Part shown: piece after piece, positions 3,861 to 45,250 of the stretch
Layout: each line of letters starts with the position of its first letter
Numbering within the stretch: the stretch's first letter is position 1
Origin: a virus
IMG/VR virus record: IMGVR_UViG_3300035088_000013
Span: 22,303 to 86,302 of that record
Reading direction: 5' to 3' (one strand)
Length of the DNA: 64,000 nt
Program-made: the position numbers and the translations under genes
The notes under the pieces: model-generated
What the model saw: the letters and a program-made list of their open reading frames with translations, nothing else
Database searches by the model: none
What the model was told of the DNA's origin: nothing

Positions 3861-3861
3861 T

Positions 3862-7762: not shown

Positions 7763-7784
7763 CCCGAGCGCCCGGGAGGCCCCC

Positions 7785-8144: not shown

Positions 8145-8151
8145 GCGGGCC

Positions 8152-8179: not shown

Positions 8180-8197
8180 CGGATCGGTTACCGAAAC

Positions 8198-8259: not shown

Positions 8260-8280
8260 CCCGCCCCAAGGAGGCCCCCG

Positions 8281-8598: not shown

Positions 8599-8667
8599 CC
8601 ACCACCCCCCCCGGCCCCCGGGCGATCCCGCCCGGGGGGAACGTCAACGTTCCGGAAAGGACACACC

Positions 8668-8961: not shown

Positions 8962-8963
8962 GC

Positions 8964-9209: not shown

Positions 9210-9448
9210 TGGGCCGCGCGTACGAGAAGCGGATGGCCCGGTTGCAGGCCGCGCAGGAAGCAACCGGCCGCGCCCCGGCTCCGGCGGGGCCGATGCACCG
9301 GGCCAGCCGGGAGGCGTTCGTGCGCGGTTTCGGCCTGTCGGCGGCGGCCGTCAAGCAGTTGGTCGACCGGTGGGAGGCTGACGCGGTGGCCTGTTACGAC
9401 AAGGGGTTCGACGACGGGCGGGAGTGGCAGGAGGAGCAGCAGGGGTGA
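9209..9448 (+). CDS. Hypothetical protein
   Basis: TGATG overlap. Confidence 0.65.
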   Translation: MGRAYEKRMARLQAAQEATGRAPAPAGPMHRASREAFVRGFGLSAAAVKQLVDRWEADAVACYDKGFDDGREWQEEQQG

Positions 9449-9669
9449 AGCGGCGGGGGTGGCTGGAGCGGCTGAGAGCCGATCTGCCGGGCTGGTACGT
9501 GTGGGCGACCGGGTACGGGAGGCAGTGGCATGCGGTGCCGCTGGCGGGCGGCTGGCGGGTCGGCCGGGCTCCCCGGGGGGCTCCGGGGCGGATCGACGCG
9601 CCGTCGCCGATCGTGTTGCGCAGTCTGGTGCGTCAGAAAGAACGAGACAACCCCACTCCACCCTGTTGA
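9445..9669 (+). CDS. Hypothetical Trp-rich protein
   Basis: GTGA overlap, GGAGGAG SD; stop inside the -35 box of element 10. Confidence 0.6.
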   Translation: MKRRGWLERLRADLPGWYVWATGYGRQWHAVPLAGGWRVGRAPRGAPGRIDAPSPIVLRSLVRQKERDNPTPPC

Positions 9670-9725
9670 CATCCGAACGGGTGACGTGTTTACTTGGTTT
9701 GTGAGCGGGGGGCTGGAGCCCCCGC
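9662..9725 (+). promoter_or_regulatory. Repeated promoter + hairpin element, copy 10
   Basis: TTGACA 9666-9671, 17 nt, TTTACT, hairpin. Confidence 0.85.
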
Positions 9726-29989: not shown

Positions 29990-30535
29990 TCACGGCGTGG
30001 GGTTGCGGTAGCGGACGTTGAGCCGCACCGCCCCACCGAAGCGACGCACGTCGGAGGCGTCGTCGTAGAACAGCAGCGTCGGGCGGCGCACCTCGGTGAC
30101 CCGGTTGACCCACATGGAGCCGTCGGCGGTGATGTAGCCGCTCGAGTCGAGCAGCGCGGCGCGGGTCTGCGCGGCGATCTGCTTGGCGGTGGTCCGGGAT
30201 CCGGCGTAGCCGTCGTAGTCGATGACGGCGGTGTCATGGGCAGGGACCAGCTGCCCGCCGCCGGGGGTCTCCTGGATCTGCACGATCGGCAGGTGCCGTT
30301 CGATGTCGGCGGGCAGCTCGGTAACCACCCGCACCGTCAAAGCCGGGCCGAGCAGCTCCACAACGAGCCGTTCCACGTCCGAGACGACAGTGTCCGGGGG
30401 AGCCCACCATGATCCGTCGCCGGGGCTCAGCGCGACGGAGACGGACAAACCCCCGGCACCGGTATGACCGGCTACCCCGGTGGGTGCGCCGCCCGCTACG
30501 CCCGCACTAACGGCCAGCAGCAGGTCGGCGGTCAC
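29990..30535 (-). CDS. Tail terminator-like protein
   Basis: DVERLVV..L...ELP..LP.VQ...GG pattern; immediately before the major tail gene. Confidence 0.7.
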   Translation of the reverse strand: MTADLLLAVSAGVAGGAPTGVAGHTGAGGLSVSVALSPGDGSWWAPPDTVVSDVERLVVELLGPALTVRVVTELPADIERHLPIVQIQETPGGGQLVPAHDTAVIDYDGYAGSRTTAKQIAAQTRAALLDSSGYITADGSMWVNRVTEVRRPTLLFYDDASDVRRFGGAVRLNVRYRNPTP

Positions 30536-30934: not shown

Positions 30935-31192
30935 CTAGGTGGAGCGGGTTTGTGGACCGGCGGCCTCGAACAACGCCTTGTACTGGTCGCTGGTGATCCG
31001 CGGGTCGATCTCCACCTGTTTCCACGAGTTCGGGTCGACGTCCGGCTCGTCGTCGTGGACGCCGTACTGTTGGGCCAGGGTCGGCCGCGGCGGCAACGGC
31101 GGCCACGAGCGGGCGGTGAAGTCGTCGCACACCTGCTGAAGGGTGAGCCGCCGGTTGGCCAGATCGTCGAGCAGCTGCTTCACCGTCGCCAC
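30935..31192 (-). CDS. Small protein after the zeta-like toxin (candidate immunity)
   Basis: AAGGGAG SD, GTG 31192, 13 nt after the toxin stop; paralog at 6127-6399. Confidence 0.85.
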   Translation of the reverse strand: MATVKQLLDDLANRRLTLQQVCDDFTARSWPPLPPRPTLAQQYGVHDDEPDVDPNSWKQVEIDPRITSDQYKALFEAAGPQTRST

Positions 31193-31205: not shown

Positions 31206-32165
31206 TTACTGGCCGATGCGGCCGTTGTTCGCGACCAGGACCGGATCCCTGCCGTCGACCGAGTTGTCGTAGTGCGCCCAATTCGAGAAGCCACTCTTGA
31301 GTCCCTCGAACACGTCCATGTTCACCGTTCTACCGGAGGAGGTCTTCTGCGCGCGGATGATCCGCGGGTCGACATACCGGCCGCCGTGCCCTTCGCCTTT
31401 GAGCCACTTGTTCACGCCCCTCTTGTACCGGCCCATGGCCCGCTGGACACTCTTCTCCACCGGAATGTCCACGAACAGGCCGTCGACCTGGCCGTAGCCT
31501 GCTGCCTTGAGCGCCTTGACCCGGCCGCGTACGGAGCTGTCGGAGCTCATGGTGATGTCCCAGATGACGTTCTTGTGGTCGGCGTACGCCCTCGCCGCGA
31601 GCGCCTTCGCGATGTCGGAGGACTCCTCGTGCACGAGTCCGGCGCGTTCCATCGGGGAGAACTCTTCACCCCCGGGCACCTCGGGCATCAGGCCACGCTT
31701 GGCCAATTCCTCCTTGATGTCATCCGGGTTGATCGTCAGGAACCGGGACTTGTCCACGCCCGCGTGCTTATTGAGCACGCTGCTTTTCCCGGCCCCGCCC
31801 AATCCTCCGGCGATGATCGCCTTGCCCTCGTTCGGCACGTGAGCGGCCTTCGCGTACAGGTCGTCGACGATCTGCCGGTGCACGTCGGCCCGCTCGGCCG
31901 ACCACCGGCCGCCATCCATGTGAGTGACGTCGGTCGAGAGGGTCGGCGACACTTCCTTGGCGAGCTTGCCGACCTTCTCGCCGCGCACCGTCAACTGTTC
32001 GTCGGTGAACTGGCCGGTGAGCGGGGTCAGGTGGGTCGTGGTGCCGGTGCTGCCCCGGGTGATGACCTTGATATCCGGGCCGCCCCGGCCGCCGCCGCCG
32101 TGGCCGTGGGAGAACTTCCCCGTCAGATCCCGCGGGTGCAGCGACTCTTCCCAGCGTCTGTTCAT
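31206..32165 (-). CDS. Zeta-toxin-like P-loop kinase with an N-terminal HPRD tag
   Basis: ATGA overlap; Walker A GGLGGAGKSS, INPDDIK, VHEESS, NVIWDIT, GGRYV. Confidence 0.8.
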   Translation of the reverse strand: MNRRWEESLHPRDLTGKFSHGHGGGGRGGPDIKVITRGSTGTTTHLTPLTGQFTDEQLTVRGEKVGKLAKEVSPTLSTDVTHMDGGRWSAERADVHRQIVDDLYAKAAHVPNEGKAIIAGGLGGAGKSSVLNKHAGVDKSRFLTINPDDIKEELAKRGLMPEVPGGEEFSPMERAGLVHEESSDIAKALAARAYADHKNVIWDITMSSDSSVRGRVKALKAAGYGQVDGLFVDIPVEKSVQRAMGRYKRGVNKWLKGEGHGGRYVDPRIIRAQKTSSGRTVNMDVFEGLKSGFSNWAHYDNSVDGRDPVLVANNGRIGQ

Positions 32166-32461
32166 CGACGCACCTCCGCGACGGCCCGGGCCAGAACGCG
32201 CCGGGCATGCATGTACCGCGTCCCAAACTCCAGATATGCCGCATATGGGGCGGTATTGAAGACGGTGGCGGAGGCGTAGCCCTTGCTGTTGAGGCCCGCC
32301 CGGTAGTGCCACGACCGGCGGTAGCGGCCGGTCCGCACCGGGGAGAGGTCTTGGGCGCGTTCCTTCACGCGGGCGGCGCGGACCCGCATCGCCTCGATCA
32401 TGTAGGGGGCGCGCAGCATCGCCTGGACACCACCGGGGTAGAGCGTCGTATGGGTAGGCAC
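32162..32461 (-). CDS. HK97 gp10-like tail completion protein
   Basis: SPVRTGRYRRSW...PYAAYLEFGT. Confidence 0.85.
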   Translation of the reverse strand: MPTHTTLYPGGVQAMLRAPYMIEAMRVRAARVKERAQDLSPVRTGRYRRSWHYRAGLNSKGYASATVFNTAPYAAYLEFGTRYMHARRVLARAVAEVRR

Positions 32462-32483
32462 CCCGGTCCCCTTTCCGTTCCGC

Positions 32484-33185
32484 TCAGCCGGTGGTGTGCA
32501 CGGCGCGGACGACGACCCCGGCGGTGACACCCAAAACCGGCTCGGTGATCACGGTGGGTTCTCCGTCGATCGACCAGCGGGCCCCGCCGATCAGCAGCCG
32601 GTCGATGGCCTTCACCTTCGTGCCGGGCGGGAACACCACGGTGCGGGACCGGGTGACCCTCGAGTCGCCGGTGGCGGTCGAGGTGGCCGATTGGTCGAGT
32701 TGGCCGAGGGTCACCCCGCGGACCTTGACCGGGGTCTCCCCGTACACGTCGTTGCCGTAGGCGTCCCGGCCGGTCACGACCCGCCGCAAGACGGTGACCG
32801 TGACCCCGCCGATCGGGGTCGGCGCGTTCCCGCCGACCCGGATCTGGGCTTCGAGGTGCGCGGGGACGGGGAACACGGTCGTGGGGCCGCGTTCGGCGAC
32901 GGCCTGGATCGACCCGGACCGGCCGTCGGCGAGGGTGACTTTCGACCCGGTCGGCACATCCGACCCGAGCAGGCAGAACAACCGGATCGTGGTGTCGGTG
33001 ACGGTGTCGCGTCCTTGACGGCCGCTCGAGGGGGCCTCGTCGAGCAGGCACCGCAACGGGTAGGCGGGGTCCCACGTGTCGACGTCCCGGTACGGCTGGA
33101 CCTGGACGGTGTCGGTGAGCAGCACCAGCGGCACCCGGCCTGCGGTGTGCCTGCCTCGCCCGTTCGTCCGGGCCCGGCCGATCAT
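32484..33185 (-). CDS. Head-to-tail stopper (head closure), apparently two tandem domains
   Basis: TVTVLR...DAYGN...PPGT.V.A.DR...W.IDGEP; similar beta pattern in the N-terminal half. Confidence 0.7.
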   Translation of the reverse strand: MIGRARTNGRGRHTAGRVPLVLLTDTVQVQPYRDVDTWDPAYPLRCLLDEAPSSGRQGRDTVTDTTIRLFCLLGSDVPTGSKVTLADGRSGSIQAVAERGPTTVFPVPAHLEAQIRVGGNAPTPIGGVTVTVLRRVVTGRDAYGNDVYGETPVKVRGVTLGQLDQSATSTATGDSRVTRSRTVVFPPGTKVKAIDRLLIGGARWSIDGEPTVITEPVLGVTAGVVVRAVHTTG

Positions 33186-33958
33186 CAGCGCACCCACGGG
33201 GGTTGCGGGTTCAGCCCGGCAGCGCGCAGGATGTCGGCGGCCTGCGACGGGAGGCGGGTCGATTGGCCTTTCGCTTGACCGGCGGTGGCGCGGCCGACGG
33301 AGATCGACCCCGCCGACAAGCTCCCGTACACCGCGAGGGAACCGGCGGGGTCGCCGGTGTCGTTCCACCACGACACGATTTCGCAAACAGCGTCACGGAC
33401 CGCTGCGCGTTGTTCCGGGTCGGAGGGGAAGCCGTTGTCGTCGACGTTGTACCGGGCCGTGAGCAGCATCAAATCGACTTCGCGGGTGGCGTCGGCGAGC
33501 ATCCGCTCACAATCCGGGGGCGGGCTGTCCCGCAGGTACGCGGCCAGATCCGCGCTGGTGGCGTACGAGTAGCCGACCGGGTCGGCCAGCCGATCCGGGG
33601 CGACCGTGACCTCGTGGACGATGCGGCCGTTGCCGGTGCCGGTGACGGTCCACACGTGATACCACAAGCCGCCGACGTCGTAGGGGGCGACGACCGCCGT
33701 CCATATCTTGCCGCCTTGGGAGCTGGTCGCGGTCATCGGCAGCACCCGCCGGGTCATGCTGTCCGGCAGCGGCGGAATCGGCGGCCCGGGCGGCGGCGTA
33801 GGCGGGATCGGCGGTGCCGGTGCCGGGGGGAACGGTGACACGGGCGGGCCGGGGGGTGCCTGCACCGGCGGGGAGTACACGACCAGCGACGCAACCGTCG
33901 AACCGTCGAACCGGTCCAGCTCGAGCCGGGCGACCTGCGCGATACCGACCTCGGGCAT
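33185..33958 (-). CDS. Head-to-tail adaptor with an extra N-terminal domain
   Basis: YATSADL...L..A...VD...RDAVC...AGSIS...A..IL..AGL. Confidence 0.75.
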   Translation of the reverse strand: MPEVGIAQVARLELDRFDGSTVASLVVYSPPVQAPPGPPVSPFPPAPAPPIPPTPPPGPPIPPLPDSMTRRVLPMTATSSQGGKIWTAVVAPYDVGGLWYHVWTVTGTGNGRIVHEVTVAPDRLADPVGYSYATSADLAAYLRDSPPPDCERMLADATREVDLMLLTARYNVDDNGFPSDPEQRAAVRDAVCEIVSWWNDTGDPAGSLAVYGSLSAGSISVGRATAGQAKGQSTRLPSQAADILRAAGLNPQPPWVR

Positions 33959-33980
33959 GGTCGCCTCCTTCTCGGCTTTG

Positions 33981-34277
33981 TCAGATGGTGTGGGCGCGGG
34001 TGGCGGCCTGGTCCGCGGTCACGGCGGCGGCGGTGTCGGCCGCGGCGGCGGACGGCCCGGCCGCGACGGAGACAGCGGTGGTGATGTCGTCGCGGGAGGT
34101 CGCGGCCGGACCGTGCGGGGCCGGGGCGGCGGGGTTCACGGCCGGTCCGGCAGGCCACGGCGGGGGGTCTTGCGCGCGGCCGGTCACCGCCGCCTGGACG
34201 GTGAGGACGGCTTGCGGGCGGGCCGCGGGCGGCCCACCGATGTCGATGCCGGAGGGAAGCAGCAGGACCAGCAGCAC
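33981..34277 (-). CDS. Hypothetical Ala/Thr-rich protein
   Basis: Fills the gap in the operon; start uncertain. Confidence 0.4.
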   Translation of the reverse strand: MLLVLLLPSGIDIGGPPAARPQAVLTVQAAVTGRAQDPPPWPAGPAVNPAAPAPHGPAATSRDDITTAVSVAAGPSAAAADTAAAVTADQAATRAHTI

Positions 34278-34303
34278 GCCCGACCACCCCGCCCCTTTTT
34301 TTG

Positions 34304-34524
34304 TCAGGTCACCCGAAGCCACACCGCGGGTGGGCCGATCGCGCCTCCACCCCAGGTGGCGAGGTTGTATGGCGGGAAGACCGTCAGCGACGGGACGCTG
34401 ATGTTGAAGTTTGTTCCCGGGTTGGTGTTCACCCCCGGGTTGAACATTCCGACGGTTGGGCGCTGCGAGGTCGAGCCGAGAGAGGCGGGGCTGAACGCGG
34501 TAGCACCGATCCTCGCCTCCGGTT
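34304..34524 (-). pseudogene. Probable orphan C-terminal fragment of a fibre-like gene
   Basis: Protein-like frame ending PPAVWLRVT* directly after the stop of 34525-35886, no convincing start. Confidence 0.4.
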
Positions 34525-35886
34525 TCAGGCGACCTGGAAAATGATGACAATGGCAGAGGTCAGCGTCGGGCTGATTCCCGAGAGAACCGGATTGGACGGC
34601 AACGCACCGGTGACGCTGTCGGCGATTTCCATCGATGCTTGCCCTGTGGTACTCCAGTTGGTTGTGCCGCGATATCCGGCGAAAACGTTGCCCCCGTTGA
34701 GCGCCGAAACCGTCGGGGCCGACGTCTGCGGAACGTAGCCGAAAAAATATTGACCGGCAGGCAGCGCCAGTGACAGGCCGGTGACCCCGGCGAGCCCGAG
34801 CGCTGTCGTCGAGAACTGCGCCGACCCGTACACAAGGGTGCCAGGTGTTCCGGTTGCCGGGTTGACGTTCCACACCCCGACGCGACCGAAACCGCCGGTT
34901 GATACCGCTGTCACGTTGATGAACAGGCCTGCGATAGTCACCGGCGCATAAATGACAGTAGGTGTGAGGTACAGCCGGTTGACGGCGTTGGTGGTGGTGG
35001 TGGTAGCACCGTTGGTAACCCGGCTGTCGTAGTAGCGGCCGGACACATAGTACTGCTGGTAGGCGACGGCAGGTGTACCCGACGGGCCTTGCGGGCCGGG
35101 GTCACCTTGGACGCCGGGGATGCCTTGCTGGCCTTGGGGGATGGTGAACGCGAGCACCGCCGCACTGGAGGTGCCGGAGTTGGTGACGGCCGCGTTCGAC
35201 CCGGGCGTGCCGGTGGCGGTGGTACCGACCGTGACGGTGGCCGCCGCCCCCGGGGTGCCGGGGGTGCCCGGTGTTCCGGGGTCGCCCTTGTCCCCCTTGG
35301 GGATGGTGAACGCGAGCACCGCCGCGCTGGAGGTGCCGGTGTTGGTGACGGCGGCGTTCGACCCGGGCGTGCCGGTGGTTGTCGACCCGACGGCGACGGT
35401 GGCCGCCGCCCCGGGCGCGCCCGGGGTGCCGGGATCACCCTTGCCGCCTGCCGGTCCGGCCGGGCCGACCATCTGGTGAAACAGCGTGATCGACTGGTTA
35501 CTTTTCCCGACGCCGGTGCCGCCGGTGTAGACGACAGGCACTTCGACGTAGGAGCCGCCCGGGTAGTCGACGGCGTCGGCCGCTACGGCGTACTCCGCGT
35601 ATTTCGTCGCGTCGGTGCGGTCCTGGATCGTGATCGAGTCCCCGGCGGTGATCATCCGCAGCAGCGGCGCGACGTTGTCGCCGTTCGCGACCCGGTAATT
35701 CAGCCACAACGTCGCGGACACGTCCGGGGTGGCCCCGTCGGAGCGGACCTGGCCGCTGGTGGGCGGCGGGGTCGACGTGTTCGACCACGAGTAGGCGTAC
35801 GCCGACGATGACGCGCCAGGGGGGCCCTGCACGCCGGGAAGGCCGGGTGTACCGGCGGGGCCGCGGACGGCCATGCCGGTTCTCAC
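34525..35886 (-). CDS. Collagen-like repeat virion fibre/decoration protein
   Basis: Gly-X-Y runs, two TVxVGxTxTG repeats shared with the tail fibre, lower-GC C-terminal domain. Confidence 0.75.
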   Translation of the reverse strand: MRTGMAVRGPAGTPGLPGVQGPPGASSSAYAYSWSNTSTPPPTSGQVRSDGATPDVSATLWLNYRVANGDNVAPLLRMITAGDSITIQDRTDATKYAEYAVAADAVDYPGGSYVEVPVVYTGGTGVGKSNQSITLFHQMVGPAGPAGGKGDPGTPGAPGAAATVAVGSTTTGTPGSNAAVTNTGTSSAAVLAFTIPKGDKGDPGTPGTPGTPGAAATVTVGTTATGTPGSNAAVTNSGTSSAAVLAFTIPQGQQGIPGVQGDPGPQGPSGTPAVAYQQYYVSGRYYDSRVTNGATTTTTNAVNRLYLTPTVIYAPVTIAGLFINVTAVSTGGFGRVGVWNVNPATGTPGTLVYGSAQFSTTALGLAGVTGLSLALPAGQYFFGYVPQTSAPTVSALNGGNVFAGYRGTTNWSTTGQASMEIADSVTGALPSNPVLSGISPTLTSAIVIIFQVA

Positions 35887-36320
35887 GTGCTCACCCACAC
35901 CAGCGCGACCGCGTCCCCGGCGTCTTGGGCGTCGAGGTAGACGGCGTTGCTGTTGTTCACATCCAGCGACATGGCTTCCCCGGCAGCGAGGGGGAACCCG
36001 GACAGGAACGTCACCGTCGGGCCGCCGATGTAGATGAGGCCCTGGTTGCCGGGCATCGCCCGCAGGGTGAGGCCGTAGATGCCCGCGTGGGCGGGGAGCC
36101 GGGTGGGGGTGCCGGGGGTGGTGACGGCGGCCCGGTCCGCGCCGACGGTGCCGCCGGGCTGGACCTGCGTGGGTAGCGGGCTGGCGGGTGACACGTCGAC
36201 CAGGCTGCCGTCGGGGCCGTACCCGACTTTCACCCTTTGGGCTTTGACCCCGGAGCCGATGTCGTCGGCGGCGATCGTCGCACCACCGGACCCGGGGTTG
36301 ATCACGACGTTATCCGGCAT
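35883..36320 (-). CDS. Virion-associated hypothetical protein
   Basis: GAAGGG SD, ATG 36320; QRVK..YG.DG...DVS..SPLP. Confidence 0.75.
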   Translation of the reverse strand: MPDNVVINPGSGGATIAADDIGSGVKAQRVKVGYGPDGSLVDVSPASPLPTQVQPGGTVGADRAAVTTPGTPTRLPAHAGIYGLTLRAMPGNQGLIYIGGPTVTFLSGFPLAAGEAMSLDVNNSNAVYLDAQDAGDAVALVWVST

Positions 36321-36348
36321 CGACCCTGGCCCTTCGCGTGCGGTGTCG

Positions 36349-36711
36349 TCAGGTGGCGGTGAGTTCGGCGTTCGTGACGGTGTAGGTGCCTTGACCGGCG
36401 AACGTTTCGATGGTGGGGTCACCGTTGGCGTCCCGCAGCGGGTCACCCCCGAGGAACCGGCCGTCATCGGTCCAGGTGCCGAAGTGCGACACGGCGGTAC
36501 CGGGTGGGACGTCGAACGTGGCCGGGCTGGCCAGGTCGCGGATGCCGGGGCCGGTGACCCCCCAGGACACGGCCTGCCGGGTGTAGACGGGGGTACCACC
36601 GGTCAACTCGTTCGCACCGTCGGTGCCGGGGTCGTCGTCGTGCAGGCTCAGCATGGTGGCCGCGTCCGCGAGACCTTCCACGGCGGCGTCGCGCCCGTTG
36701 TCGGATAGCAT
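36349..36711 (-). CDS. Virion-associated (decoration/fibre-like) protein
   Basis: SLH..DPGT.GANE..GG...Y.RQ...W...FDVP.G..VSHFG.W. Confidence 0.75.
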   Translation of the reverse strand: MLSDNGRDAAVEGLADAATMLSLHDDDPGTDGANELTGGTPVYTRQAVSWGVTGPGIRDLASPATFDVPPGTAVSHFGTWTDDGRFLGGDPLRDANGDPTIETFAGQGTYTVTNAELTAT

Positions 36712-36827
36712 TCTCGGCCCCTTTGAACACGGCACGGTTCGGGTTGGGGGTGGCGGGCGCACGGCGGTGGTCCCTCGCCGCGAGTTGACCTTGCCGCGCG
36801 CCCGTCACGACATCAGGCGGTGCGCCA

Positions 36828-37478
36828 TCAGCGGTGATGCTGCTGCTTGGCGGCAGGGGCCTCGGCTGTTGCAGCCCCGGCGGACGGGGTCTGCTGCTTG
36901 TCGGCGGCCTTGTCCGCGGATGCCTTGGCCGCGGTCTTGTTCCGGTCAGCGGCCCTGGTGGTGGCCTTCTTGACGGCTTCGGCCTGTTTCTTGGCCCCGG
37001 ACTTGTCCGGGTCTCCGACCGGCGGCGCGTTGACGATGTCCGCGTTCAGGTAGTCGGAGCGCACCCGGGTTTGGGAGCCGTCGAGGTTGCTGGCCAGCAC
37101 GCCGTGCATGGCGATCGCGTCGGCGTCGGCGGCGGCCTTCGCCCTGAGCACCTCGGGCGGGATACCGTCGATGATGTTGCGCGACAGCACTCCGCCGACA
37201 CCGTGGCCGGGCTGCCTCGCCACAACGTCCGCCGGTGAAGGGGTGATGGCGACCGCGCCGAGGCCGTTGCCGCTGGCGTCCGGGTCGGACGGCTTGGCGG
37301 GCTCGCCGATCATCCGGGAGGTGTGCGACTGCTTCGCGACCTCATCCACCACCAGGTCCGGAATGTCGGAGGAGTCGACGCGCTCCCAGTTGGGGCGCAC
37401 CTCCAGGTCGGGGCGCTCACCGCCGAACGCGAACGTTTCCCCGGTGAGCACATTCTTGTAAGCGAACACTTCAGTCAT
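36828..37478 (-). CDS. Hypothetical protein after the major capsid gene
   Basis: GGAG SD, ATG; Lys/Ala-rich tail. Confidence 0.75.
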   Translation of the reverse strand: MTEVFAYKNVLTGETFAFGGERPDLEVRPNWERVDSSDIPDLVVDEVAKQSHTSRMIGEPAKPSDPDASGNGLGAVAITPSPADVVARQPGHGVGGVLSRNIIDGIPPEVLRAKAAADADAIAMHGVLASNLDGSQTRVRSDYLNADIVNAPPVGDPDKSGAKKQAEAVKKATTRAADRNKTAAKASADKAADKQQTPSAGAATAEAPAAKQQHHR

Positions 37479-37530
37479 GGTCGATCTCCACTCGTTGGTG
37501 GCGGACTCTGTTCGCGCCTCGTGCGGCCCG

Positions 37531-38442
37531 TTACGGCAGCGGGGCGGCGTGGATGAGGATGGCCTTCTGCGCGTCGACGACGGTCATGCCGTAGAGGATG
37601 TCGAAGGAGATCAGGTCCACCTTCATCTTGATGTCGTAGCCGTAGGTGACGCGGATCCCCAGGCCGTTGTAGGAGGCGATCGCGGACTGCCCGGGGGCGA
37701 CCCCCATCGGGATCGCCAGGGGTCGCACCGCGACGGCGAACGCATCTTTGTGGAACGCGAGCGATACCTCACTGCCGGGGTTGCCGGTGGTCTGCGGCGG
37801 CAGCCCGACCCCGTTGTGCTCGTAGGCGTCGAACGAGAACAGCCGGTTGCCGAGGCTGGCCTCCCGCAGGCCCTGGGTGTCGCCGCGGGCGTCGGCCCGC
37901 TTGAGGAGGTCGTTCTTCAGCCACTTGCTGGTGGTGATCGACCCGACGACCGCGTACCGGTCGGAGATCGGCACGCCACGCAGCGACAGTTCCCGGCGGG
38001 CTGCGATCAGCGCCTCCGGCGTATCCCACATCTCAGTCGCGACATTGCCGACGTAGGTGGGGATGCCGTTGCGCAGTGCGAGCAGGTCGGTCTCGAGGGC
38101 CTGGATGATGGCCTGCACGGCGGGCTGGATGAACTTGCCGGAGAAGTCGTCCAGTTTGAGGGTGAGTTCCTCGGTGGAGATCGCGAAGCTGACGTCCTTG
38201 AACTTGTTCAAGGTCATCGGGACGCCGGTCTCCTGGTAGTTCTGGATCCGGGTGCCGTTCACACGGTCGAAGTCGTCGGCGACGAACGCCTGCGGCTTAC
38301 GGATGGTGATGGTGTCACCGATCTTGTTTGCGAACTCGTCCTCGTAGTCACGGTGTACGAGCTGCGACATCACGGTGTCGCGGTACATGATCGCGATCGC
38401 CCGGCGGGCGATGACGGATGGGGTAAGGATCGTGTTTGCCAC
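37531..38442 (-). CDS. Major capsid protein (P22-coat-like)
   Basis: ANTILTP..IA...GDTITIRKP...LAFHKDAF...FDILYG. Confidence 0.9.
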   Translation of the reverse strand: MANTILTPSVIARRAIAIMYRDTVMSQLVHRDYEDEFANKIGDTITIRKPQAFVADDFDRVNGTRIQNYQETGVPMTLNKFKDVSFAISTEELTLKLDDFSGKFIQPAVQAIIQALETDLLALRNGIPTYVGNVATEMWDTPEALIAARRELSLRGVPISDRYAVVGSITTSKWLKNDLLKRADARGDTQGLREASLGNRLFSFDAYEHNGVGLPPQTTGNPGSEVSLAFHKDAFAVAVRPLAIPMGVAPGQSAIASYNGLGIRVTYGYDIKMKVDLISFDILYGMTVVDAQKAILIHAAPLP

Positions 38443-38503
38443 GGTGTCGGTCTCCCTCGGCGGAAGTGCCTGGAGGACCCACCCCGGCGGAAACGGGCGC
38501 GGG

Positions 38504-39388
38504 TCAGCGCTGCACGGCAGCGCTCACGGGGTCGATCTGCCGGATGTGGTCCTCAATGGACATGTCGGCGTCGGTAACTCGTCCGCCGGGCCCGCCGGTG
38601 AACTCGCCTCCGCTCTGTTTCGGCGCAGCCGCAGGCGGCTGCACCTTGAATCGGGTGGGGTTCGATGAGACCTGGGCGCGGATCAGCTCGGCGAGCTGCT
38701 CGGCGAACCCGTCGGCGGCCGGATCGAGGCCCTTGATCTTGGCGAGGAACCCCGCGGAGTCCATGAGTTCCGGGGTGTTCGCTCCCTGACCGGTGGCTGA
38801 CTGCCACACCGCGAGCTGGACCTGAAGCTCCCGGTGTTTATCGGTCCAGTCCTGCACGGCCCCTTGCGTCTGCTCGAGGCGTTGCATCGCCTCGTCGATC
38901 GTCTTGGGGCGCTGGGGTTCGGCCTGCTCGTCGGTGTCGTCGACCAGGCCCATCACCTTCGCGAAGCCGTCGACGAAGCCCTGGAGCTTGTCGGCGTTCG
39001 CCTTGACCCGCTCGTCGGCCTTGTCCTCGGCGGTCTTCGCCTTGACCCGGTTGTCGCCGTTCTCCTTCTCGAGGGCGCGGATGCGTTTCTGCGCCCATCC
39101 GGGGAGCTGCTCGAACTCTTCGGTCACCTGGCCCCCGCCGGTGCCCGCCTCGGGCGGGTCGGACGGCTTCGGGGCCGGTTTCACCGGGGGCGTGGTGGTG
39201 GTGTCACCGGCTGCACTGGTCTGCTTCCCCTTGCCCGCGGTGGTCTCACCGGTGACGCCGTCGTGGCCGTCGACCGACTGCTCGATCTGCTCGACCGTCA
39301 AAGGCTCAGGGATGCTGCTGGTTTCGCCGGTCCCGCCGGTCGATCCCGCGTCGCTGGACCCGCCCGGGGTCTCTGTCACGTCGCTCAT
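38504..39388 (-). CDS. Capsid scaffolding protein
   Basis: Acidic disordered N-terminus, LPGWAQK.I..L.KE...R, C-terminal SGGEFTGG; precedes the major capsid gene. Confidence 0.8.
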   Translation of the reverse strand: MSDVTETPGGSSDAGSTGGTGETSSIPEPLTVEQIEQSVDGHDGVTGETTAGKGKQTSAAGDTTTTPPVKPAPKPSDPPEAGTGGGQVTEEFEQLPGWAQKRIRALEKENGDNRVKAKTAEDKADERVKANADKLQGFVDGFAKVMGLVDDTDEQAEPQRPKTIDEAMQRLEQTQGAVQDWTDKHRELQVQLAVWQSATGQGANTPELMDSAGFLAKIKGLDPAADGFAEQLAELIRAQVSSNPTRFKVQPPAAAPKQSGGEFTGGPGGRVTDADMSIEDHIRQIDPVSAAVQR

Positions 39389-39533
39389 GTGCAGGTTCGC
39401 CCTTTCATGGGGAGAGCCGGTCGCACCCGGCGACCGGCTCCCGTTGGAGGTGGAACACGTGCTTCTCTTGTCACCCCACCCCCGGCAAGGGGCGGGACGT
39501 CGTTTCAAGGGGGGGTGCCGGTACGCTCCCGGC

Positions 39534-39716
39534 ATGGATGAGGCCGAAGAGCTGGCCACATTGCGGTCGGCGCTGGAGCGCGACAAGACGTGGTGTCTGC
39601 GGGTCTACCGGGCAGCAGCGTGGGTGCAGCGGACGGTGCATCCGTCGGTGGCCCGGGATCAGGGCTGGTGCCAGCGGATCGCCCTGTTGCAGCGGGTGCT
39701 ACGCGAACGAGCGTGA
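39534..39716 (+). CDS. Small antisense-oriented protein, probably leaderless
   Basis: TACGCT -10-like box at 39522-39527, 6 nt before ATG. Confidence 0.5.
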   Translation: MDEAEELATLRSALERDKTWCLRVYRAAAWVQRTVHPSVARDQGWCQRIALLQRVLRERA

Positions 39717-39852
39717 GTGAACCGCCGTGACCGGAGGTGCCGGTCGTACCGTCGAGGGGCGGGGCGCGCCCAACCCGCCCTTGCCGCCGGGGGCAGAGCC
39801 AGCGGCCCTTCGTCTGCTCCCGGCAGCTCCGAGCGCGTCCCGCGCCCACGTC

Positions 39853-40017
39853 TCAGCGCGGTTTACGGGCGGCGTTGGTGAGGATGACCGGCGGGTAGTC
39901 GACCTGCTGGCGGGCCTGCACCCTTTGGGCGTCGGACAGCTGTCGCGCGCTACGTACCGCTTCCGGGACGGGTGACGGTGACGTCGACGAGCCGGGTTCC
40001 TTCGGCGTCGGTGCCAT
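39853..40017 (-). CDS. 54-aa ORF overlapping the end of ART2 (candidate immunity)
   Basis: ATG 40017 with GAAGGTGG upstream; MAPTPKE...DAQRVQARQQVDYPPVILTNAARKPR; below the ORF-track cutoff. Confidence 0.5.
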   Translation of the reverse strand: MAPTPKEPGSSTSPSPVPEAVRSARQLSDAQRVQARQQVDYPPVILTNAARKPR

Positions 40018-40720
40018 GGTCTTTGACCACCTTCCACACCAGGTCGTGCTCCAGCGTCAGTTCGGCCTGGGGGCCGTTGTGTTTGCTGCCCCGGGTGTGG
40101 GTGGAGGTCCCGAGGGCGTGGACGCCAGCGGCGACGTGGACCCGCATCTTGACCGCGCCGACGGCGGGGGTGGCGTCGGGGTGCGGTGATCCGTGGGTGA
40201 ACGTGCGGACGACGTCCTCGTTCGTGGTCATCGACCCGTAGCCCTTCTCATGCCACGAGAAGCCGGACAGGTCGCCGTCGAGTTGGTCGCCGAACAGGTT
40301 GCGCGCCAAAAACAGGCCGCGCCAGCCTTGGACCGGTTGTGGTAGTGGACTGTCGGCCATGGCGGTGTCGATCCGGTTGACGTCTTGTTCCTCGCGGCTC
40401 TTGCCGGGGTTGCCCCACATGTCTTTGCGCAGGAACTGGTTGATGGCCATGAACCAGCCGGTCTCGTACTCCGTCAGGGATTCACGTTGTTCGGGGGTCA
40501 TGGTGCCGCGTTTGTAGAGGCCCTTGGGGACGGCGTCGTGGGCGGCCTGCCCGGTGAGGACGGCCCCGGAGGCGTGCAGGCCGCCGTCGCCGCCGCGGGT
40601 GATGACCTGGATGTCGGGGTGATCCGCCACGTCGGTGAACCGGCCGTTTTTGTCGCGGGGGTGCAGCAGCTCTTCCCAGTTGGCGAGGTTGGCCCGCCAG
40701 TCGGAGCCAAGGTGGGTCAC
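39950..40720 (-). CDS. VIP2-like ADP-ribosyltransferase (ART2, Q-x-E) with an N-terminal HPRD tag
   Basis: Y......INQFLR...ID.AM...WRG...GYGSMTT...QAELTL; GAAGGGAG SD. Confidence 0.8.
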   Translation of the reverse strand: MTHLGSDWRANLANWEELLHPRDKNGRFTDVADHPDIQVITRGGDGGLHASGAVLTGQAAHDAVPKGLYKRGTMTPEQRESLTEYETGWFMAINQFLRKDMWGNPGKSREEQDVNRIDTAMADSPLPQPVQGWRGLFLARNLFGDQLDGDLSGFSWHEKGYGSMTTNEDVVRTFTHGSPHPDATPAVGAVKMRVHVAAGVHALGTSTHTRGSKHNGPQAELTLEHDLVWKVVKDHGTDAEGTRLVDVTVTRPGSGT

Positions 40721-40759
40721 GACCGGTCTCCCTTCCGGCGGCGGGAGGCTCCCTGAACG

Positions 40760-40939
40760 TCAGCGCGGGGTGTCGTCCACCTGTGGTGGTCGCGGCTTTT
40801 CCCCGCCGCGTTGCATGCTGCCCGGCGGGTACTCGGCCAGGTAGCCGCCCAGGCCGGGCCACGTCTGATCGGTCAGCAGCAGCACCTCGTCGTCGGCGTG
40901 CCGCTTGGCGAGCCGGTCACCGGCGGGGTCGGGTTTCAT
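40760..40939 (-). CDS. 59-aa protein coupled to ART1 (candidate immunity)
   Basis: ATGA overlap with the ART1 stop, GAAGGA SD. Confidence 0.65.
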   Translation of the reverse strand: MKPDPAGDRLAKRHADDEVLLLTDQTWPGLGGYLAEYPPGSMQRGGEKPRPPQVDDTPR

Positions 40940-42129
40940 CGCTGGTATTCCTTCCAGGCGTCGCCGTTCGGGTTCGGCTGCCAGCCGGGCGGGTAGGTCC
41001 AGTCGGCGGGCACGACTTCCGCTTCGATGTAGATCCGGTACCCGTCGGCCGGGTCGCGGTAGGCGGCGTGGATGACCCGCTTGGTGCCCCGCGGCAGCAG
41101 GATCTCCCCCTCGGACTGCCACGCCGAGTGCTCATTGACGGCGAGGCCGTGCTGCCCGGCGGGGGTGCGGATCAGCCAGGTTACGTGGCCTCCGGCGGTA
41201 CCCGCCCCACCCGGGCGGCGGCCGATGCTGGTGGACCAGAACGCATCGTCGTGGATGACCCGCCCGGTCAGCGAGGCGAGGCTGTCGGGGTCGTCGGGGT
41301 TGATACCGAGGGAGCGGATACCGCCCTCGTCCTCACCCCGGTGCAACAGCAGCGGCTCCGGCAGGGTGTGCGCGGCGATCGCGGCGTCGATCTCTTTGAT
41401 CGCGGTGTCGACCTGGTCGGCCCACTCGGGGTCCTTCTGGTCGAACCGCAACGCTTTGTTGATGTGCGTCGACGAGGGGCCTTTCATGCCGCCGGTGTAG
41501 TCGTGGACGGCCTTGGCCTGGGCGGGGGTCAGGTGCGCGGGCATGTGTTGCGCCGCCCATTCGCGGCCCTGTTGGTTGGAGGAGAATTGCGGGCCGCCGG
41601 GCATGCCGACGGTGCGCCGGTTGTAGGCGTTCTCCGCCAAAACTTCGTCGAGCCGTTCCGCGAGCGCGGCATGGTGTTCGGGGGTGCCGCCGTACTTGTT
41701 CAGCAGCCCCTGGACTTTGGTGGCCTGGTCGATGGCCTTCTGGTCGTCGCCGCTTGACCAGGCGGAATGCCCGAACAACACCTTGGAGCGGAACGCGTCC
41801 GGGGACATGCCTTCGAGGTCCGTGGTGACGTTCCGGGACTGCTGCTTACGCAGCGCGAGGGCGTCGGTGATGGCCTGCCTTTGGGCTTCGGTGCCGCGGC
41901 CGTGGTGCACCGCGTCGATCGCGTCCACCTTCGTGAACGGGTTGGTGACGTCGGTGAGCGCCTGGTAGGGGTCGGCGGGCAATGTCGGGTCATGACCGTG
42001 ACGGTCGTGGGTGGTGAGGCCGCCGGTGTGGTCGCGGGTGGTGACCGTGATGTCCAGGCCACCGCCGGGCATGTCGGTGAACTTGCCGTCGTGGTCCCGG
42101 TGGTGCAGCGACTCCCGCCAGTGGCTCAT
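40936..42129 (-). CDS. VIP2-like ADP-ribosyltransferase (ART1, E-x-E) with an N-terminal HHRD tag
   Basis: DYTG...INKALR...IDAAI...LHRG...FWSTS...EGEILLPRG; ATGA overlap with the minor capsid gene. Confidence 0.85.
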   Translation of the reverse strand: MSHWRESLHHRDHDGKFTDMPGGGLDITVTTRDHTGGLTTHDRHGHDPTLPADPYQALTDVTNPFTKVDAIDAVHHGRGTEAQRQAITDALALRKQQSRNVTTDLEGMSPDAFRSKVLFGHSAWSSGDDQKAIDQATKVQGLLNKYGGTPEHHAALAERLDEVLAENAYNRRTVGMPGGPQFSSNQQGREWAAQHMPAHLTPAQAKAVHDYTGGMKGPSSTHINKALRFDQKDPEWADQVDTAIKEIDAAIAAHTLPEPLLLHRGEDEGGIRSLGINPDDPDSLASLTGRVIHDDAFWSTSIGRRPGGAGTAGGHVTWLIRTPAGQHGLAVNEHSAWQSEGEILLPRGTKRVIHAAYRDPADGYRIYIEAEVVPADWTYPPGWQPNPNGDAWKEYQR

Positions 42130-43223
42130 GACCGATCCCCCTTCGGGTGCCGTGCGGTGTCCTGCCGCCGGGAGGGGCGGGCGGCGTATCCGGCACCGGG
42201 GTGTTCCCGATGCGCCCGGCGGGGCAGGCCGGTGCGGCGCAGGTGCGCGGTCAGCTCCCCCGTCCACGCGGTGACCTTCGCGGTCGCGTCGCGTTTGGCT
42301 TCCGGGGTGAGCGCCGCGGTCTCGCGTTCCCGCCATTTGCGGATGCCGCGCTCGAGGTACCGCTGGTGCTGGCGGGCGGCGTCTCCGGCCGGGTCGGCCT
42401 TGCCGGGGGCGAGGGTCATGCCGGGGATCCAGGGGGCCAGCTGGTGTCGACAGTTAGGGTGCCCTAACCCGGCGCGGCGGGCGTCGCCGACCGTCGCGAT
42501 CGCGGGCTTACGCACCGGGTGCACGATCGACAGGACCTGATGCTCCCATCTCCGGCATAACGGGCATTCCTGGGGCCGGTCGGTGACGTACACGAACGGG
42601 TACCCGAGGGACTGCTGGGCGTCGATGACGCCGACGTCGATGGCGCGGGCAACGGCGGTCCGGGTCGCCATCTCCACGTAGGAGGACAGCTGCCAGCGGC
42701 GGCCGGACTTGTCGGTGAAGCCGATGATGCCGTCGTCGACCAAAGCCGCCCACGCGGCCTGGGCGGCGCGCCGGGTGGAGGCGACCCCGGTCAGCTTCCG
42801 CCCGGTCGCCGCGCCGATGGCGTTGCGGTACGCGGATACGGCCTGGGGGAGCAGCTGCGAGTGCAGCGGGCGCAGCTCGCCGACGAGCGCGTCGGCGAGG
42901 GCCTCCACCGCGCGGGGGTACTTCTGCGGGATCGCGATGGTGCCACCGAGTGCTTGGATCGCCGTGCCCGTTCCGGCCCGCCATCCGGCCGCTACGGCCT
43001 CGCGGGCCGCGGCGGTACCTTCCCCGTCCAGGCGGGCCGCGATCGCGCGCAGCCCGGATTTGAGGGGGCCGAGTTCGGCGAGGCGGGTCTTCTGCCAGTC
43101 GGCGGCGTCCAGCCCGCGGGCGAGGCGGGCGGTGATGTAGCGGATCACCGCCAGCTCCGCGTCGTCGTAGATGTTGGTGGCGGCGGCGACGATCTGATCG
43201 ACGCGGTCGTCATCGACCGGCAT
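42126..43223 (-). CDS. Minor capsid / MuF-like head morphogenesis protein
   Basis: FTDKSGRRW.L..YVEMATRT...C..C..W...GL.HPNCRH...QRYLER.IR.W; follows the portal gene. Confidence 0.9.
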   Translation of the reverse strand: MPVDDDRVDQIVAAATNIYDDAELAVIRYITARLARGLDAADWQKTRLAELGPLKSGLRAIAARLDGEGTAAAREAVAAGWRAGTGTAIQALGGTIAIPQKYPRAVEALADALVGELRPLHSQLLPQAVSAYRNAIGAATGRKLTGVASTRRAAQAAWAALVDDGIIGFTDKSGRRWQLSSYVEMATRTAVARAIDVGVIDAQQSLGYPFVYVTDRPQECPLCRRWEHQVLSIVHPVRKPAIATVGDARRAGLGHPNCRHQLAPWIPGMTLAPGKADPAGDAARQHQRYLERGIRKWRERETAALTPEAKRDATAKVTAWTGELTAHLRRTGLPRRAHREHPGAGYAARPSRRQDTARHPKGDRS

Positions 43224-43228: not shown

Positions 43229-45067
43229 TCAGCGGCGCTTACGGGCCGCGCCCGGCGGCGGCGTCGGCGGCGGGCGACGGCGTCCACCGGGCGGCTGACG
43301 ACCCGCGGGCGGGGCGTTACCGGGCGCACCGGGCGGGTTCCCGCCGTCGGCGGGCTGGCCGGTGGCACCTTGGCCGGGGGTGTTCCCGGCCGTCGATTGC
43401 GACCCGTCGCCGGGCTGCTGGCCGTCGGGGGGCTGCTGGCCGTCGGCGACCGCGGCCACCCCGGACCCGGGCGGGGCTACGGGCGGGGTGTTGATCTTCA
43501 CCGTGTTCTTCTGGTCGTCGCGGATCCGGTCGATCTCCTCGCGGATCTGCGCGTCCTCCCAATCGGGGTTGAGCAACGCGATCCGGGTGTAGAGCGACGC
43601 CGACTCGGCCCCGTTGATCAACGACACCGTCTGCGCCACCGACAGGGGGTCCTGGGCGACCCCGTCGGGGAAGCGGATCTTCGGCAACTCGGGTTTGACC
43701 CCGTCGGGCTTGTAGTGCGCGATGTCGATCTCGAGGGCCGTCTGCAACAGGCGTGCGAGGGCCGGTTTCCAGTAGAGGATCTTCCGGCCCCGGGTCGTGA
43801 ACGACTTCCGCTCCCGGGCGACAACCTCGGTCGCGGTGGCCGCGACGTCCCCGGTGAGGCCGAACGTCTGGGTGGAGTAACCGGCCCCCCTCAGGCACTC
43901 GGCGACCAGCGACGTGACGGTCTGCTGGTGTTCGGCGACCCGGATGGCGAACTGGACCGATTGCATCGCCAGACCCTCGGAAGCGGGCATCGCGTCGACC
44001 TGGGTGAAGACGGCCTGTTCGGCGTCGAACAACGCGCCCCGGCCGCGGCCTTGGTTCTGCAGGTAGGCGGCGGGGATGAGGATGCGCCCCTTACCCAGCC
44101 GCAGATCCCGCATCCACGACGACCATGCCTCGTCGACCGAGTCGAGGACGGGTTCGATGCCGTCGTAGTCGGAGCGGCCGTACGGGGTCCGGCTCAACTT
44201 ACGGGCCGGGCGCATGTTCGGGATCCACTCCACGGCGAGGCGTTTCGCGCCGGTGACGACCTGCTGGATCAAGGGGCTGTCGGCCCCCCGGGCGGGTTCG
44301 GCGGACGCGGCCAAAGCCTCGGTGTACGGGTGCTCGGCAAGGTCGACCAGCGTGCCCAGCACCCCGTCGGAGCCGTGGTACAGGCCGTGCAGCACGACAC
44401 CCTCGCCGTTGATCACCTCGTGGCGCTCGAGGTGGCGTAGGACCTTGCTGGTGGTGCCGGTGCCGCCGTTGTCCTCGAGGCACCGCCAGAACGTGACCGC
44501 CTTCAACCGGCCTGCGACCCATTCGGGGACCGCGCAGTCGGGCTGGATCGCGTCGATGATGGCGTGGTCGGCGACGTCGTCGACCCACCCGGCGCGCAGG
44601 TACACGCCGGACATCGACGCGCAGATCTCCGCCGCTTCGATCAACACCGGCAGGAACCCGCCCTCGGTCATCAACATGGTCAACCGGTCGGTGGTCGGCC
44701 GGGGGGCGTCTTTCGACACTCCGCCGTCCTCGCCGTCGACCGCGATGGTGGGGGGCTCGGCGAACAACAAGTCGGCGGAGGTGGTGGCGATGTCCCCAGC
44801 CAAAGGCACATGCAGGCGCGCGTCGGCGAGGTCCGGGGTGGCACCGAGGCGTCGCCCCCAGAACCAGCGTTGCCGGTCCCGGCCGACGATCGACCCTTCG
44901 CTGGTGACCAAGGGGTTGGCCATGCCGTAGCCGACGGCGTCGGCGTAGACGCGGGCAAGGCAGTCCGGGTCACCCTGGTACCAGGCCCCCCACGTCTGGA
45001 ACGCGGCGTAGGGGCGGGCCAGGTCCGCGGGTGGCCACGCGGTGCGGGGGTCGGTCGGCAGCGGCAC
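43229..45067 (-). CDS. Portal protein
   Basis: LHVPLAGDIATTSADLLF, YLR..W, GRSDY, GYS..TFG, TATEV. Confidence 0.9.
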   Translation of the reverse strand: MPLPTDPRTAWPPADLARPYAAFQTWGAWYQGDPDCLARVYADAVGYGMANPLVTSEGSIVGRDRQRWFWGRRLGATPDLADARLHVPLAGDIATTSADLLFAEPPTIAVDGEDGGVSKDAPRPTTDRLTMLMTEGGFLPVLIEAAEICASMSGVYLRAGWVDDVADHAIIDAIQPDCAVPEWVAGRLKAVTFWRCLEDNGGTGTTSKVLRHLERHEVINGEGVVLHGLYHGSDGVLGTLVDLAEHPYTEALAASAEPARGADSPLIQQVVTGAKRLAVEWIPNMRPARKLSRTPYGRSDYDGIEPVLDSVDEAWSSWMRDLRLGKGRILIPAAYLQNQGRGRGALFDAEQAVFTQVDAMPASEGLAMQSVQFAIRVAEHQQTVTSLVAECLRGAGYSTQTFGLTGDVAATATEVVARERKSFTTRGRKILYWKPALARLLQTALEIDIAHYKPDGVKPELPKIRFPDGVAQDPLSVAQTVSLINGAESASLYTRIALLNPDWEDAQIREEIDRIRDDQKNTVKINTPPVAPPGSGVAAVADGQQPPDGQQPGDGSQSTAGNTPGQGATGQPADGGNPPGAPGNAPPAGRQPPGGRRRPPPTPPPGAARKRR

Positions 45068-45250
45068 CCTCGGCTCACCCCCCTTAACGTCCTCGGATTG
45101 TGGTGTGCAACGTTCGGGCCCGGCGTCACCGCGGGTGAACCTGTTCCCGGCCGGTGCGTGCCGGTCACCGGGTGACGCCGGGGGTCTATAAGCGGCCCCC
45201 AAACCTCCGGGCGTTCATCTCAACCGGGTATGACAGAAATCGATTTGTCC

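Follow-up and report, generated by a model that had tools for sequence, protein, structure and literature searches.

Three unrelated enzymes in a phage head-to-neck gene block share an N-terminal leader that may load them into the virion

How does a tailed phage select free-standing enzymes for delivery into a host along with its DNA? The question is raised by three genes in a 64,000-nucleotide stretch of viral DNA (the window), bases 22303–86302 of the 86,302-bp IMG/VR virus record IMGVR_UViG_3300035088_000013, which is rated 95% complete and has a GC content of ~70%. The genes encode two ADP-ribosyltransferases (ART1 and ART2) and a zeta/AvrRxo1-like P-loop kinase, lie in a minus-strand block of head and neck genes, and begin with the same short leader. 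Enzymes that phages inject together with their DNA, whether known or predicted to be so delivered, include T4 Alt, the Dar proteins of P1, MuF toxins and polyvalent proteins. To our knowledge, the selection of unfused cargo for the capsid is understood for very few phages. The window provides a natural test case, with three unrelated enzymes in separate genes, one leader tuned to the genome, and one toxin-like enzyme whose partner has both a late and a non-late copy.

The leader consists of W-x-E-x-L-H-P/H-R-D-x-x-G-K/R-F, a glycine-rich linker, and then D-I-x-V-x-T-R. ART1 starts with MSHWRESLHHRDHDGKFTD..LDITVTTR and the kinase with MNRRWEESLHPRDLTGKFSH..PDIKVITR, while in ART2 an 11-residue pre-leader stands ahead of ANWEELLHPRDKNGRFTD..PDIQVITR. 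In a six-frame scan of the window the regular expressions LH[PH]RD, W[RE]E.LH, D[IL].V.TR and H[PH]RD..G[KR]F gave three matches each, all on the minus strand and all at the N-termini of the open reading frames (ORFs) starting at 42129, 40720 and 32165. The core expression, observed three times in the window, did not occur in any of 300 block shuffles. A profile of the three leaders (alignment A1, 15 invariant columns) identified only these three sites in the whole record (E 6.7e-32, 1.8e-29 and 1.3e-25), so that the N-terminal bipartite motif described for these genes in a preliminary description of the DNA is borne out. The leader covers residues 1–38 of ART1 (nt 42016–42129), 12–48 of ART2 (nt 40577–40687) and 1–45 of the kinase (nt 32031–32165). 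The chosen starts are backed by Shine-Dalgarno-like sequences and by a fall in the GC content of third codon positions (GC3) upstream of them (0.68 and 0.55, versus 0.87–0.90 within the genes). ART1 and ART2 can be aligned over the leader only, and all three proteins are unrelated beyond it.

At the DNA level the three leaders have diverged, but the key residues are kept and conservation follows the amino acids. A recent DNA duplication or a DNA-level recombination site was rejected on this ground, and a secretion signal for want of any hydrophobic segment in the leader. Neither the leader nor any of the three small ORFs beside the enzymes is covered by a Pfam, PHROG or NCBIfam family. In the AlphaFold2 model of the kinase, the leader has a pLDDT of ~65, the linker (residues 21–43) falls below 50 and is predicted to be disordered, and the domain (residues 55–319) exceeds 90. 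As modelled, this is the build of a short peptide tethered on a disordered linker. The second half of the leader (DIxVxTR) is lineage-specific and also predicted to be disordered.

The block runs, in the direction of transcription, from portal to MuF, ART1, ART2, scaffold, coat, neck genes, kinase and tail terminator, with names taken from Pfam and PHROG matches. The gene ahead of ART1 encodes a 365-aa MuF2-type minor capsid or head morphogenesis protein (42126–43223, minus strand; PF06152, 183.7 bits; phrog_581, E 4.4e-77). It ends at a TGA that overlaps the ATG of ART1 as ATGA, and the TGA of an HK97 gp10-like tail-completion or neck protein (32162–32530, minus strand; PF04883, 45.1 bits; phrog_5, E 3.6e-15) overlaps the ATG of the kinase in the same way. 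The toxin-like enzymes are therefore stand-alone proteins that are not fused to MuF, and two of them are coupled to a virion gene, both as originally proposed.

The leader had been viewed as a private tag of ~40 residues. This part of the proposal does not hold, as its first ~14 residues are a widespread phage junction motif. A search with the leader profile against 1.84 billion representative proteins (E<=1e-3) gave 251 matches, 150 of them listed. The listed matches are mostly proteins of 400–7334 aa with 2–15 matched stretches each, and the match always falls at profile positions ~3–25. A regular expression applied to the 148 listed proteins other than the window's own found 421 instances in 145 of them and none in the remaining three, with a median spacing of 270 aa. 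The resulting logo, [WF]-[DE]-E-x-x-H-P-R-D-x-x-G-[RK]-F, is preceded by an Ala/Leu-rich stretch and followed by a Gly-rich run, and does not include the DIxVxTR half. Pfam searches of nine motif proteins and a one-in-three subset of 45 recovered ART-PolyVal, ADPrib_exo_Tox, Zeta_toxin, MuF, portal, NUDIX, GNAT, Topo IB, RelA_SpoT, HicA, Ntox44 and LPD1 domains. This is the domain repertoire of phage-type polyvalent proteins, and no conjugation family was present among the 25 families shown of the 45 matched. A word-indexed protein search with the leader alone (kinase residues 1–50) returned only the query. Translated searches with the kinase and ART1 against cultured phages (3 and 92 records) matched the catalytic parts and never the leader. 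The closest cultured relatives by MuF are 35–39% identical (101 records), and the motif is absent from the ten loci L008–L017, one of which encodes the 742-aa MuF fusion of Streptomyces phage Raleigh. Literature searches with the motif string returned nothing on phages, and term searches of the main texts of PMC5512222, PMC5576092 and PMC11699363 found no description of the motif.

The position of the motif is strongly polar. Of the 145 library proteins, 41 have their first motif within 50 aa of the N-terminus, and three have their last motif within 50 aa of the C-terminus. In IMG/VR, degenerate patterns from the three leaders were too narrow (4 loci) and were replaced by the IUPAC pattern E-x-x-HPRD-x-x-G-x-F, which located at least 116 stretches containing 127 motif ORFs, 77 of them complete. 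In 25 of the 77 the motif is no more than 50 aa from the start. None has it that close to the stop, and at least 53 aa always follow the motif. For the 80 listed loci of the 116, the sequence flanking the first motif was scanned on both sides. Upstream segments of at least 60 aa (53) matched Phage_portal_3 (17), Phage_portal_2 (3), Portal_Mu (2), the P23-45 portal (1), NUDIX (9), DUF2213 (4), MuF (3) and ART-PolyVal (3). The 84 downstream segments matched Topo IB (5), Zeta_toxin, ADPrib_exo_Tox and LPD3 (4 each), NUDIX (3), ART-PolyVal and ParB_N (2 each), as well as PBECR1/2/3, GNAT and MuF (1), and there was no portal family among the 25 families shown of 26 matched. These contents indicate that the motif stands between a head 'carrier' and its cargo, between cargo modules, or at the N-terminus of stand-alone cargo.

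The gene-neighbourhood check suggested in the preliminary description placed 27 stand-alone leader genes of IMG/VR mostly next to portal or MuF/head-morphogenesis ORFs, and the refuting outcome named there, tag hits with no enrichment in head modules, did not arise. The 29 nearest upstream ORFs of these genes, in tallies that can overlap, matched the portal families phrog_859 (13), phrog_2662 (3) and phrog_146, phrog_104 and phrog_64 (2 each), together with the head-morphogenesis families phrog_2468 (4), phrog_324 and phrog_3517 (3 each), and the Pfam families MuF (3), SPP1_portal (3) and Phage_portal_3 (2). DUF6582 was also matched in 7 of the 29. One IMG/VR lineage (L018, L033, L034, L038, L042, L072, L076, L082, L089 and L095) carries an ORF of 556–882 aa that matches portal and head-maturation-protease PHROGs, followed directly by a leader-first ORF. 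The latter is 1476–2027 aa long in the seven long loci, and four of the ten ORFs are cut by the end of the locus. Of 37 motif-bearing viral records with a length of 30 kb or more, 27 contain MuF (PF04233), as do 9 of the 11 records that are at least 90% complete. A variant leader, F-D-P-D-Q-P-R-D-x-x-G-R-W (L219–L238), was observed in viral contigs, Hyphomicrobiaceae, Tardiphaga, Actinoplanes and a Sediminibacterium metagenome-assembled genome, a spread that extends the leader family over several phyla.

The leaders follow the genome rather than the cargo. A homologue of ART1 (P0271) and one of the kinase (P0193), each known from a single 97,856-bp contig that the two are inferred, from its identical length, to share, both begin MRRGFDP[DS]QPRD..GRW.DG. 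Over a 17-residue window the leaders of P0271 and P0193 are identical at 13 positions and each pair in the window's phage at 10, while orthologues in the two genomes agree at only 4–6. The catalytic parts behave in the opposite manner: from one genome to the other they are 45.5% (ART1) and 57.4% (kinase) identical, and inside a genome they cannot be aligned. The same tendency is seen among repeated copies of the motif, which at the 14 non-fixed positions are 51.8% identical within a protein versus 37.7% between proteins, with the within-protein value the higher in 116 of the 128 proteins that have several copies. Near-identical leaders are likewise found on separate ORFs of the same locus (L032, L062 and L085). 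Such genome-wise co-variation is expected from a shared phage-specific partner, whether a receptor or a processing enzyme, and speaks against a role directed purely at the host.

Each of the three proteins has a single recognised enzymatic domain in Pfam, and both ARTs exceed the 23.4-bit cut-off of PF03496, which comprises the R-S-E ADP-ribosyltransferases. ART1 (40936–42129, minus strand; 75.9 bits over residues 194–357) consists of the leader, a region of ~150 aa with no assigned function, and a C3/VIP2-type ADP-ribosyltransferase domain. Aligned to PDB 8za7, this domain shows R (LLLHRG), STS (FWSTS) and ExE (SEGEIL) elements, which we take to be the Arg, Ser-Thr-Ser and (Q/E)xE motifs of such enzymes. 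ART2 (39950–40720, minus strand; 28.5 bits) is a divergent, weak VIP2 match in which the Arg is aligned and the motifs GYGSMTT and PQAELTL were assigned by eye only. Only two homologues of ART1 were found in the 218–695 aa band, of which P0271 is 45% identical, and the search method used found no relatives of either ART in genome contigs. From its leader to residue 203, ART2 aligns with the final module of a polyvalent ORF in L027 (at least 1310 aa; E 6e-11). A search of the record for a macro or ARH hydrolase as a possible ART antidote found none.

The kinase (31206–32165, minus strand) matches Zeta_toxin (PF06414; 60.5 bits, cut-off 22.3), retains a complete Walker A motif (GGLGGAGKS) and is modelled with a pLDDT of 88.9. 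Foldseek searches with the model retrieved AvrRxo1-ORF1 (4z8q, E 2.6e-9) and the zeta/PezT kinases (3q8x, 1gvn and 2p5t) at a probability of 1.00. The kinase has 1307 homologues (175–559 aa, E<=1e-10). Of the best 119, the strict N-terminal motif is present in 19, variants such as F-N-P-N-Q-K-R-D-x-x-G-R-W in many more, and others have unrelated N-termini. When 25 tagged kinases are aligned, the leader Arg and Gly do not vary, and the kinase domain is often preceded by a short h-V-x-V segment that corresponds to DIKVITR.

The kinase also has a conserved neighbour. An 85-aa gene (30935–31192, minus strand), a candidate immunity or antitoxin gene, starts with GTG 13 nt past the kinase TAA, with AAGGGAG upstream, and has a GC3 of 0.92. 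In an iterative search (alignment A8), homologues of this partner immediately followed kinase homologues in 65 of 79 Actinomycetes genomic loci. The chromosomal kinase homologues (L134–L213) mostly have another N-terminal leader, L-x-x-G-H-P-S-S-P (HPSSP type; strict expression in 21 of 79), and keep the same partner. The kinase–partner cassette thus sits behind at least two kinds of N-terminal leader. The partner is modelled as a small helical protein with no match in Foldseek, no similarity to epsilon or ORF2, and no match in Pfam, PHROG or NCBIfam. A protein atlas returned only unnamed actinomycete clusters for it, with scores of at most 0.87.

There are exactly two copies of the partner in the record. 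The second (6127–6399, plus strand) is located away from the late operon, has no adjacent kinase, and is 69% identical to the first over 81 aa (tblastn, E 7e-26). It is the second gene of a two-gene cassette that follows a promoter-like element, CCTGTTGACAT, at 5805, a GC hairpin and a ribosome-binding site. The element has 13 copies in the window (at most one mismatch) versus 0.56 expected, among them copies within 320–9672 and at 49739; 11 are on the plus strand and 10 within the first 10 kb. The layout suggests that the promoter cassettes are early genes. Expression of a partner copy apart from the late operon would fit a kinase that arrives with virions, either the phage's own or those of a relative.

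The small gene originally noted after each enzyme is present for two of the three. In addition to the kinase partner, a 59-aa ORF (40760–40939, minus strand), a candidate partner or immunity gene for ART1, is coupled to the ART1 stop by ATGA and has a GC1/2/3 of 0.78/0.52/0.85. Searches gave no family match for it, no paralogue in the record and no homologue among the fetched loci. For ART2 there is no convincing small gene in the same direction; an overlapping 54-aa ORF has a GC3 of 0.50 outside the overlap. Between ART2 and the scaffold gene is a possible convergent gene of 60 aa (39534–39716, plus strand), whose GC1/2/3 of 0.72/0.52/0.80 is coding-like compared to the atypical 0.53/0.74/0.77 of the opposite frame. 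The searches made gave no family match, homologue or paralogue for this ORF, and around it there is no consensus promoter or terminator, only a weak palindrome.

The three genes look like polyvalent or MuF-toxin cargo that has been split into single-module genes, each with a leader, a Gly-rich linker and one enzyme. We lean towards the explanation that the leader docks each module to the head-assembly machinery of this phage, and that the enzymes are thereby encapsidated and injected. The enzymes would be made late, along with the portal, MuF and neck proteins, and the leader would dock each of them to a component of the assembling head such as portal, MuF or scaffold. Once enclosed in the capsid they would leave with the DNA at infection, and the two ADP-ribosyltransferases and the nucleotide- or NAD-type kinase would presumably act on targets in the host. 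The 85-aa partner would hold the kinase in check, with the late copy protecting the producing cell and the promoter-cassette copy protecting the newly infected or lysogenic cell. The co-variation of leaders by genome, the conserved kinase partner (65/79) and its second copy favour virion delivery. More tentatively, [WF]xExxHPRDxxG[KR]F might be a general, portable loading or ejection handle of tailed phages, with one copy per cargo module, docking to a conserved feature of the portal/MuF machinery and surrounded by phage-tuned flanks. In the window's phage it would then act in trans on three proteins.

Several observations weigh against this docking explanation. The motif also occurs at covalent portal–cargo and MuF–cargo junctions, where an address is unnecessary, and its primary role could therefore be another, such as processing or release, that the stand-alone genes merely inherit. 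Its core hardly varies among phages that together have at least five portal Pfam families and GC contents of 0.32–0.70, which is unusual for a peptide co-evolving with a phage-specific receptor. Ten of the 37 motif-bearing records have neither PF04233 nor PF06152 MuF, and two of these are rated 100% complete; to the extent that these two models can detect it, MuF is thus not an obligate receptor. Because 10 of the 27 stand-alone cases are the single lineage described above, the neighbourhood counts lack independence. The comparison of leaders between genomes rests on one other contig with inferred linkage, and the likeness of copies within a protein could also stem from recent duplication. Immunity is supported for the kinase only, because the 59-aa ORF of ART1 and the neighbour of ART2 have no detectable homologues. 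The presence of the three proteins in virions is itself a prediction from their genes.

The motif may instead be a junction or processing site that splits polyprotein modules and, either inside the head or once injected, frees cargo from portal or MuF, with the stand-alone copies representing remnants of gene fission or short propeptides and loading occurring by other means. Such a site would account for the motif between domains of giant proteins and at portal– and MuF–cargo junctions, and for the flexible Gly-rich stretch that follows it. The leader and domain of ART2 equal the last module of a polyvalent ORF, and a shared phage protease also predicts the genome-wise co-variation of leaders. 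The need for processing polyvalent proteins into functional units is argued by Iyer et al. 2017 (PMC5512222). However, the motif is kept at free N-termini, where there is nothing to cut apart (25/77 complete ORFs and many tagged kinases), and the key residues of the three leaders are retained despite their divergence in DNA. No S78, ClpP or S49 prohead protease was found in the record, which argues against a simple prohead-protease site in this phage, and no peptidase family was matched among 20 scanned ORFs of the 29–45 kb block. A processing role appears rather unlikely but is the strongest of the alternatives.

Two other roles appear considerably less probable still. If the leader worked in the target cell, binding a conserved bacterial factor (a chaperone, protease or membrane site) to refold, localise or activate the enzyme module, the near-invariance of its core across phages of very different hosts, with their wide range of GC content and several portal families, would be explained, and the modelled architecture is that of a tethered short linear motif. 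Its variable positions are tuned by genome, though, the motif is tied tightly to head genes and not to any enzyme class, and no search suggested a host partner; this role is improbable. It is equally doubtful that the enzymes are not virion cargo at all but late-expressed morons or toxin–immunity cassettes, acting in exclusion, abortive infection or release at lysis, that were inserted by chance in a structural operon and whose leader has an unrelated role. The kinase–partner cassette does occur in Actinomycetes chromosomes with the HPSSP-type leader (21/79 strict) and with no leader motif, an integrase match suggests a temperate life style, and MuF toxins are discussed as interbacterial toxins by Jamet et al. 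2017 (PMC5576092). Chance insertion is difficult to reconcile with the translational coupling to MuF and a neck gene, with the in-frame fusion of the same leader to portal and MuF elsewhere, and with the systematic adjacency of leader genes to portal or MuF.

The docking explanation has parallels in several known systems. In phage T4, the capsid-targeting sequence (CTS) is an N-terminal peptide of ~10 residues; it attaches to the scaffolding core, and the gp21 prohead protease cleaves it off. The logic is alike, in that a short N-terminal peptide sends unrelated proteins, including the ADP-ribosyltransferase Alt, into the prohead for injection. The sequences are unrelated, however, the motif described here is also internal and repeated, and the record lacks detectable S78, ClpP and S49 proteases. 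The cargo-loading peptides of encapsulins, conserved short peptides on flexible Gly/Ala/Pro linkers, tether diverse enzymes inside an HK97-fold shell. Here too a short peptide and a flexible linker are shared features and the sequences are unrelated, but binding to the shell is established for encapsulins, whereas docking of the leader to a head component is a proposal. The kinase resembles zeta/epsilon, PezT/PezA and AvrRxo1-ORF1/ORF2 in its fold and in having a small partner gene beside it, and AvrRxo1-ORF2 also lies downstream of its kinase. It differs from these pairs in that the partner family has no structural match and the kinase carries a phage leader in a virion operon.

MuF polymorphic toxins, with which Apk2 is reportedly counted, are similar in that a toxin enzyme adjoins MuF and is followed by small immunity-type ORFs, as seen for ART1 and the kinase but not for ART2. 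The defining fusion of MuF to a toxin is absent from the window, where the upstream extension of the ART1 frame has a GC3 of 0.68, and the kinase is 10 kb away among neck genes. MuF has been proposed as the capsid-targeting part of these toxins (Jamet et al. 2017, PMC5576092; Bxa, PMC11699363). Phage-type polyvalent proteins (Iyer, Burroughs, Anand, de Souza and Aravind 2017, PMC5512222) are the closest relatives. As described in that work, they share ART, zeta-type kinase, MuF, NUDIX, PBECR and LPD domains, a context of late or head genes, and predicted delivery with DNA. The leader corresponds to their repeated inter-domain motif, and the ART2 module aligns to the end of a polyvalent ORF. 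Unlike these proteins, which have 2–15 domains per polypeptide, each enzyme in the window has its own gene and a single leader, and hence the several effectors of a polyvalent protein are not found in any one of them. The arrangement split over three genes, the genome-wise co-variation of leaders and the duplicated partner are new here.

Should the leader be sufficient for loading, it would explain why polyvalent proteins are built like beads on a string and would allow injected effectors to be recognised in phage genomes by a sequence rule. It would also provide a simple tag for packing proteins into the heads of phages in laboratory strains, and would make virion-delivered counter-defence testable in actinomycete phages. 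If it is indeed a portable handle, a phage could add, split or swap injected enzymes by attaching it.

The remaining genes of the block are on the minus strand. The portal protein (43229–45202; PF05133 SPP1_portal, 31.8 bits; phrog_533 portal, E 2e-100) has an uncertain exact start. Its C-terminal end (43229–43500) forms a low-complexity tail of ~90 aa that is rich in Pro, Gly and Gln and finally in Arg and Lys, and this basic tail may be a flexible docking arm inside the capsid. Between ART2 and the major capsid gene is a probable scaffolding protein starting MSDVTE... (38504–39388), which matches two families of unknown function (phrog_8952, E 1e-24; phrog_15186, E 2e-22) and is so named for its site between the MuF/cargo genes and the major capsid gene and for its acidic coiled sequence. 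The major capsid protein (37531–38442) is P22 coat-like (PF11651, 128.2 bits; phrog_283, E 1.4e-62). Between the coat and neck genes are head-tail adaptor and head-closure proteins and three ORFs with no clear name, one of them collagen-like. Downstream of the 85-aa kinase partner, the block continues with a 119-aa ORF and the tail terminator (29990–30535; named from the Pfam and PHROG annotation of the block).

Two further observations were made in the window. A tyrosine integrase match (PF00589, 32.9 bits, over the cut-off) at ~59290–59883 on the minus strand falls within a 447-aa open frame, and from this match the phage may be temperate. A 457-aa protein (34525–35898, minus strand), located between the capsid and neck genes, contains collagen-like G-x-y runs and repeated TGTPGSNAAVTN(T/S)GTSSAAVLAFTIP units, and shows weak matches to minor tail and fibre PHROGs.

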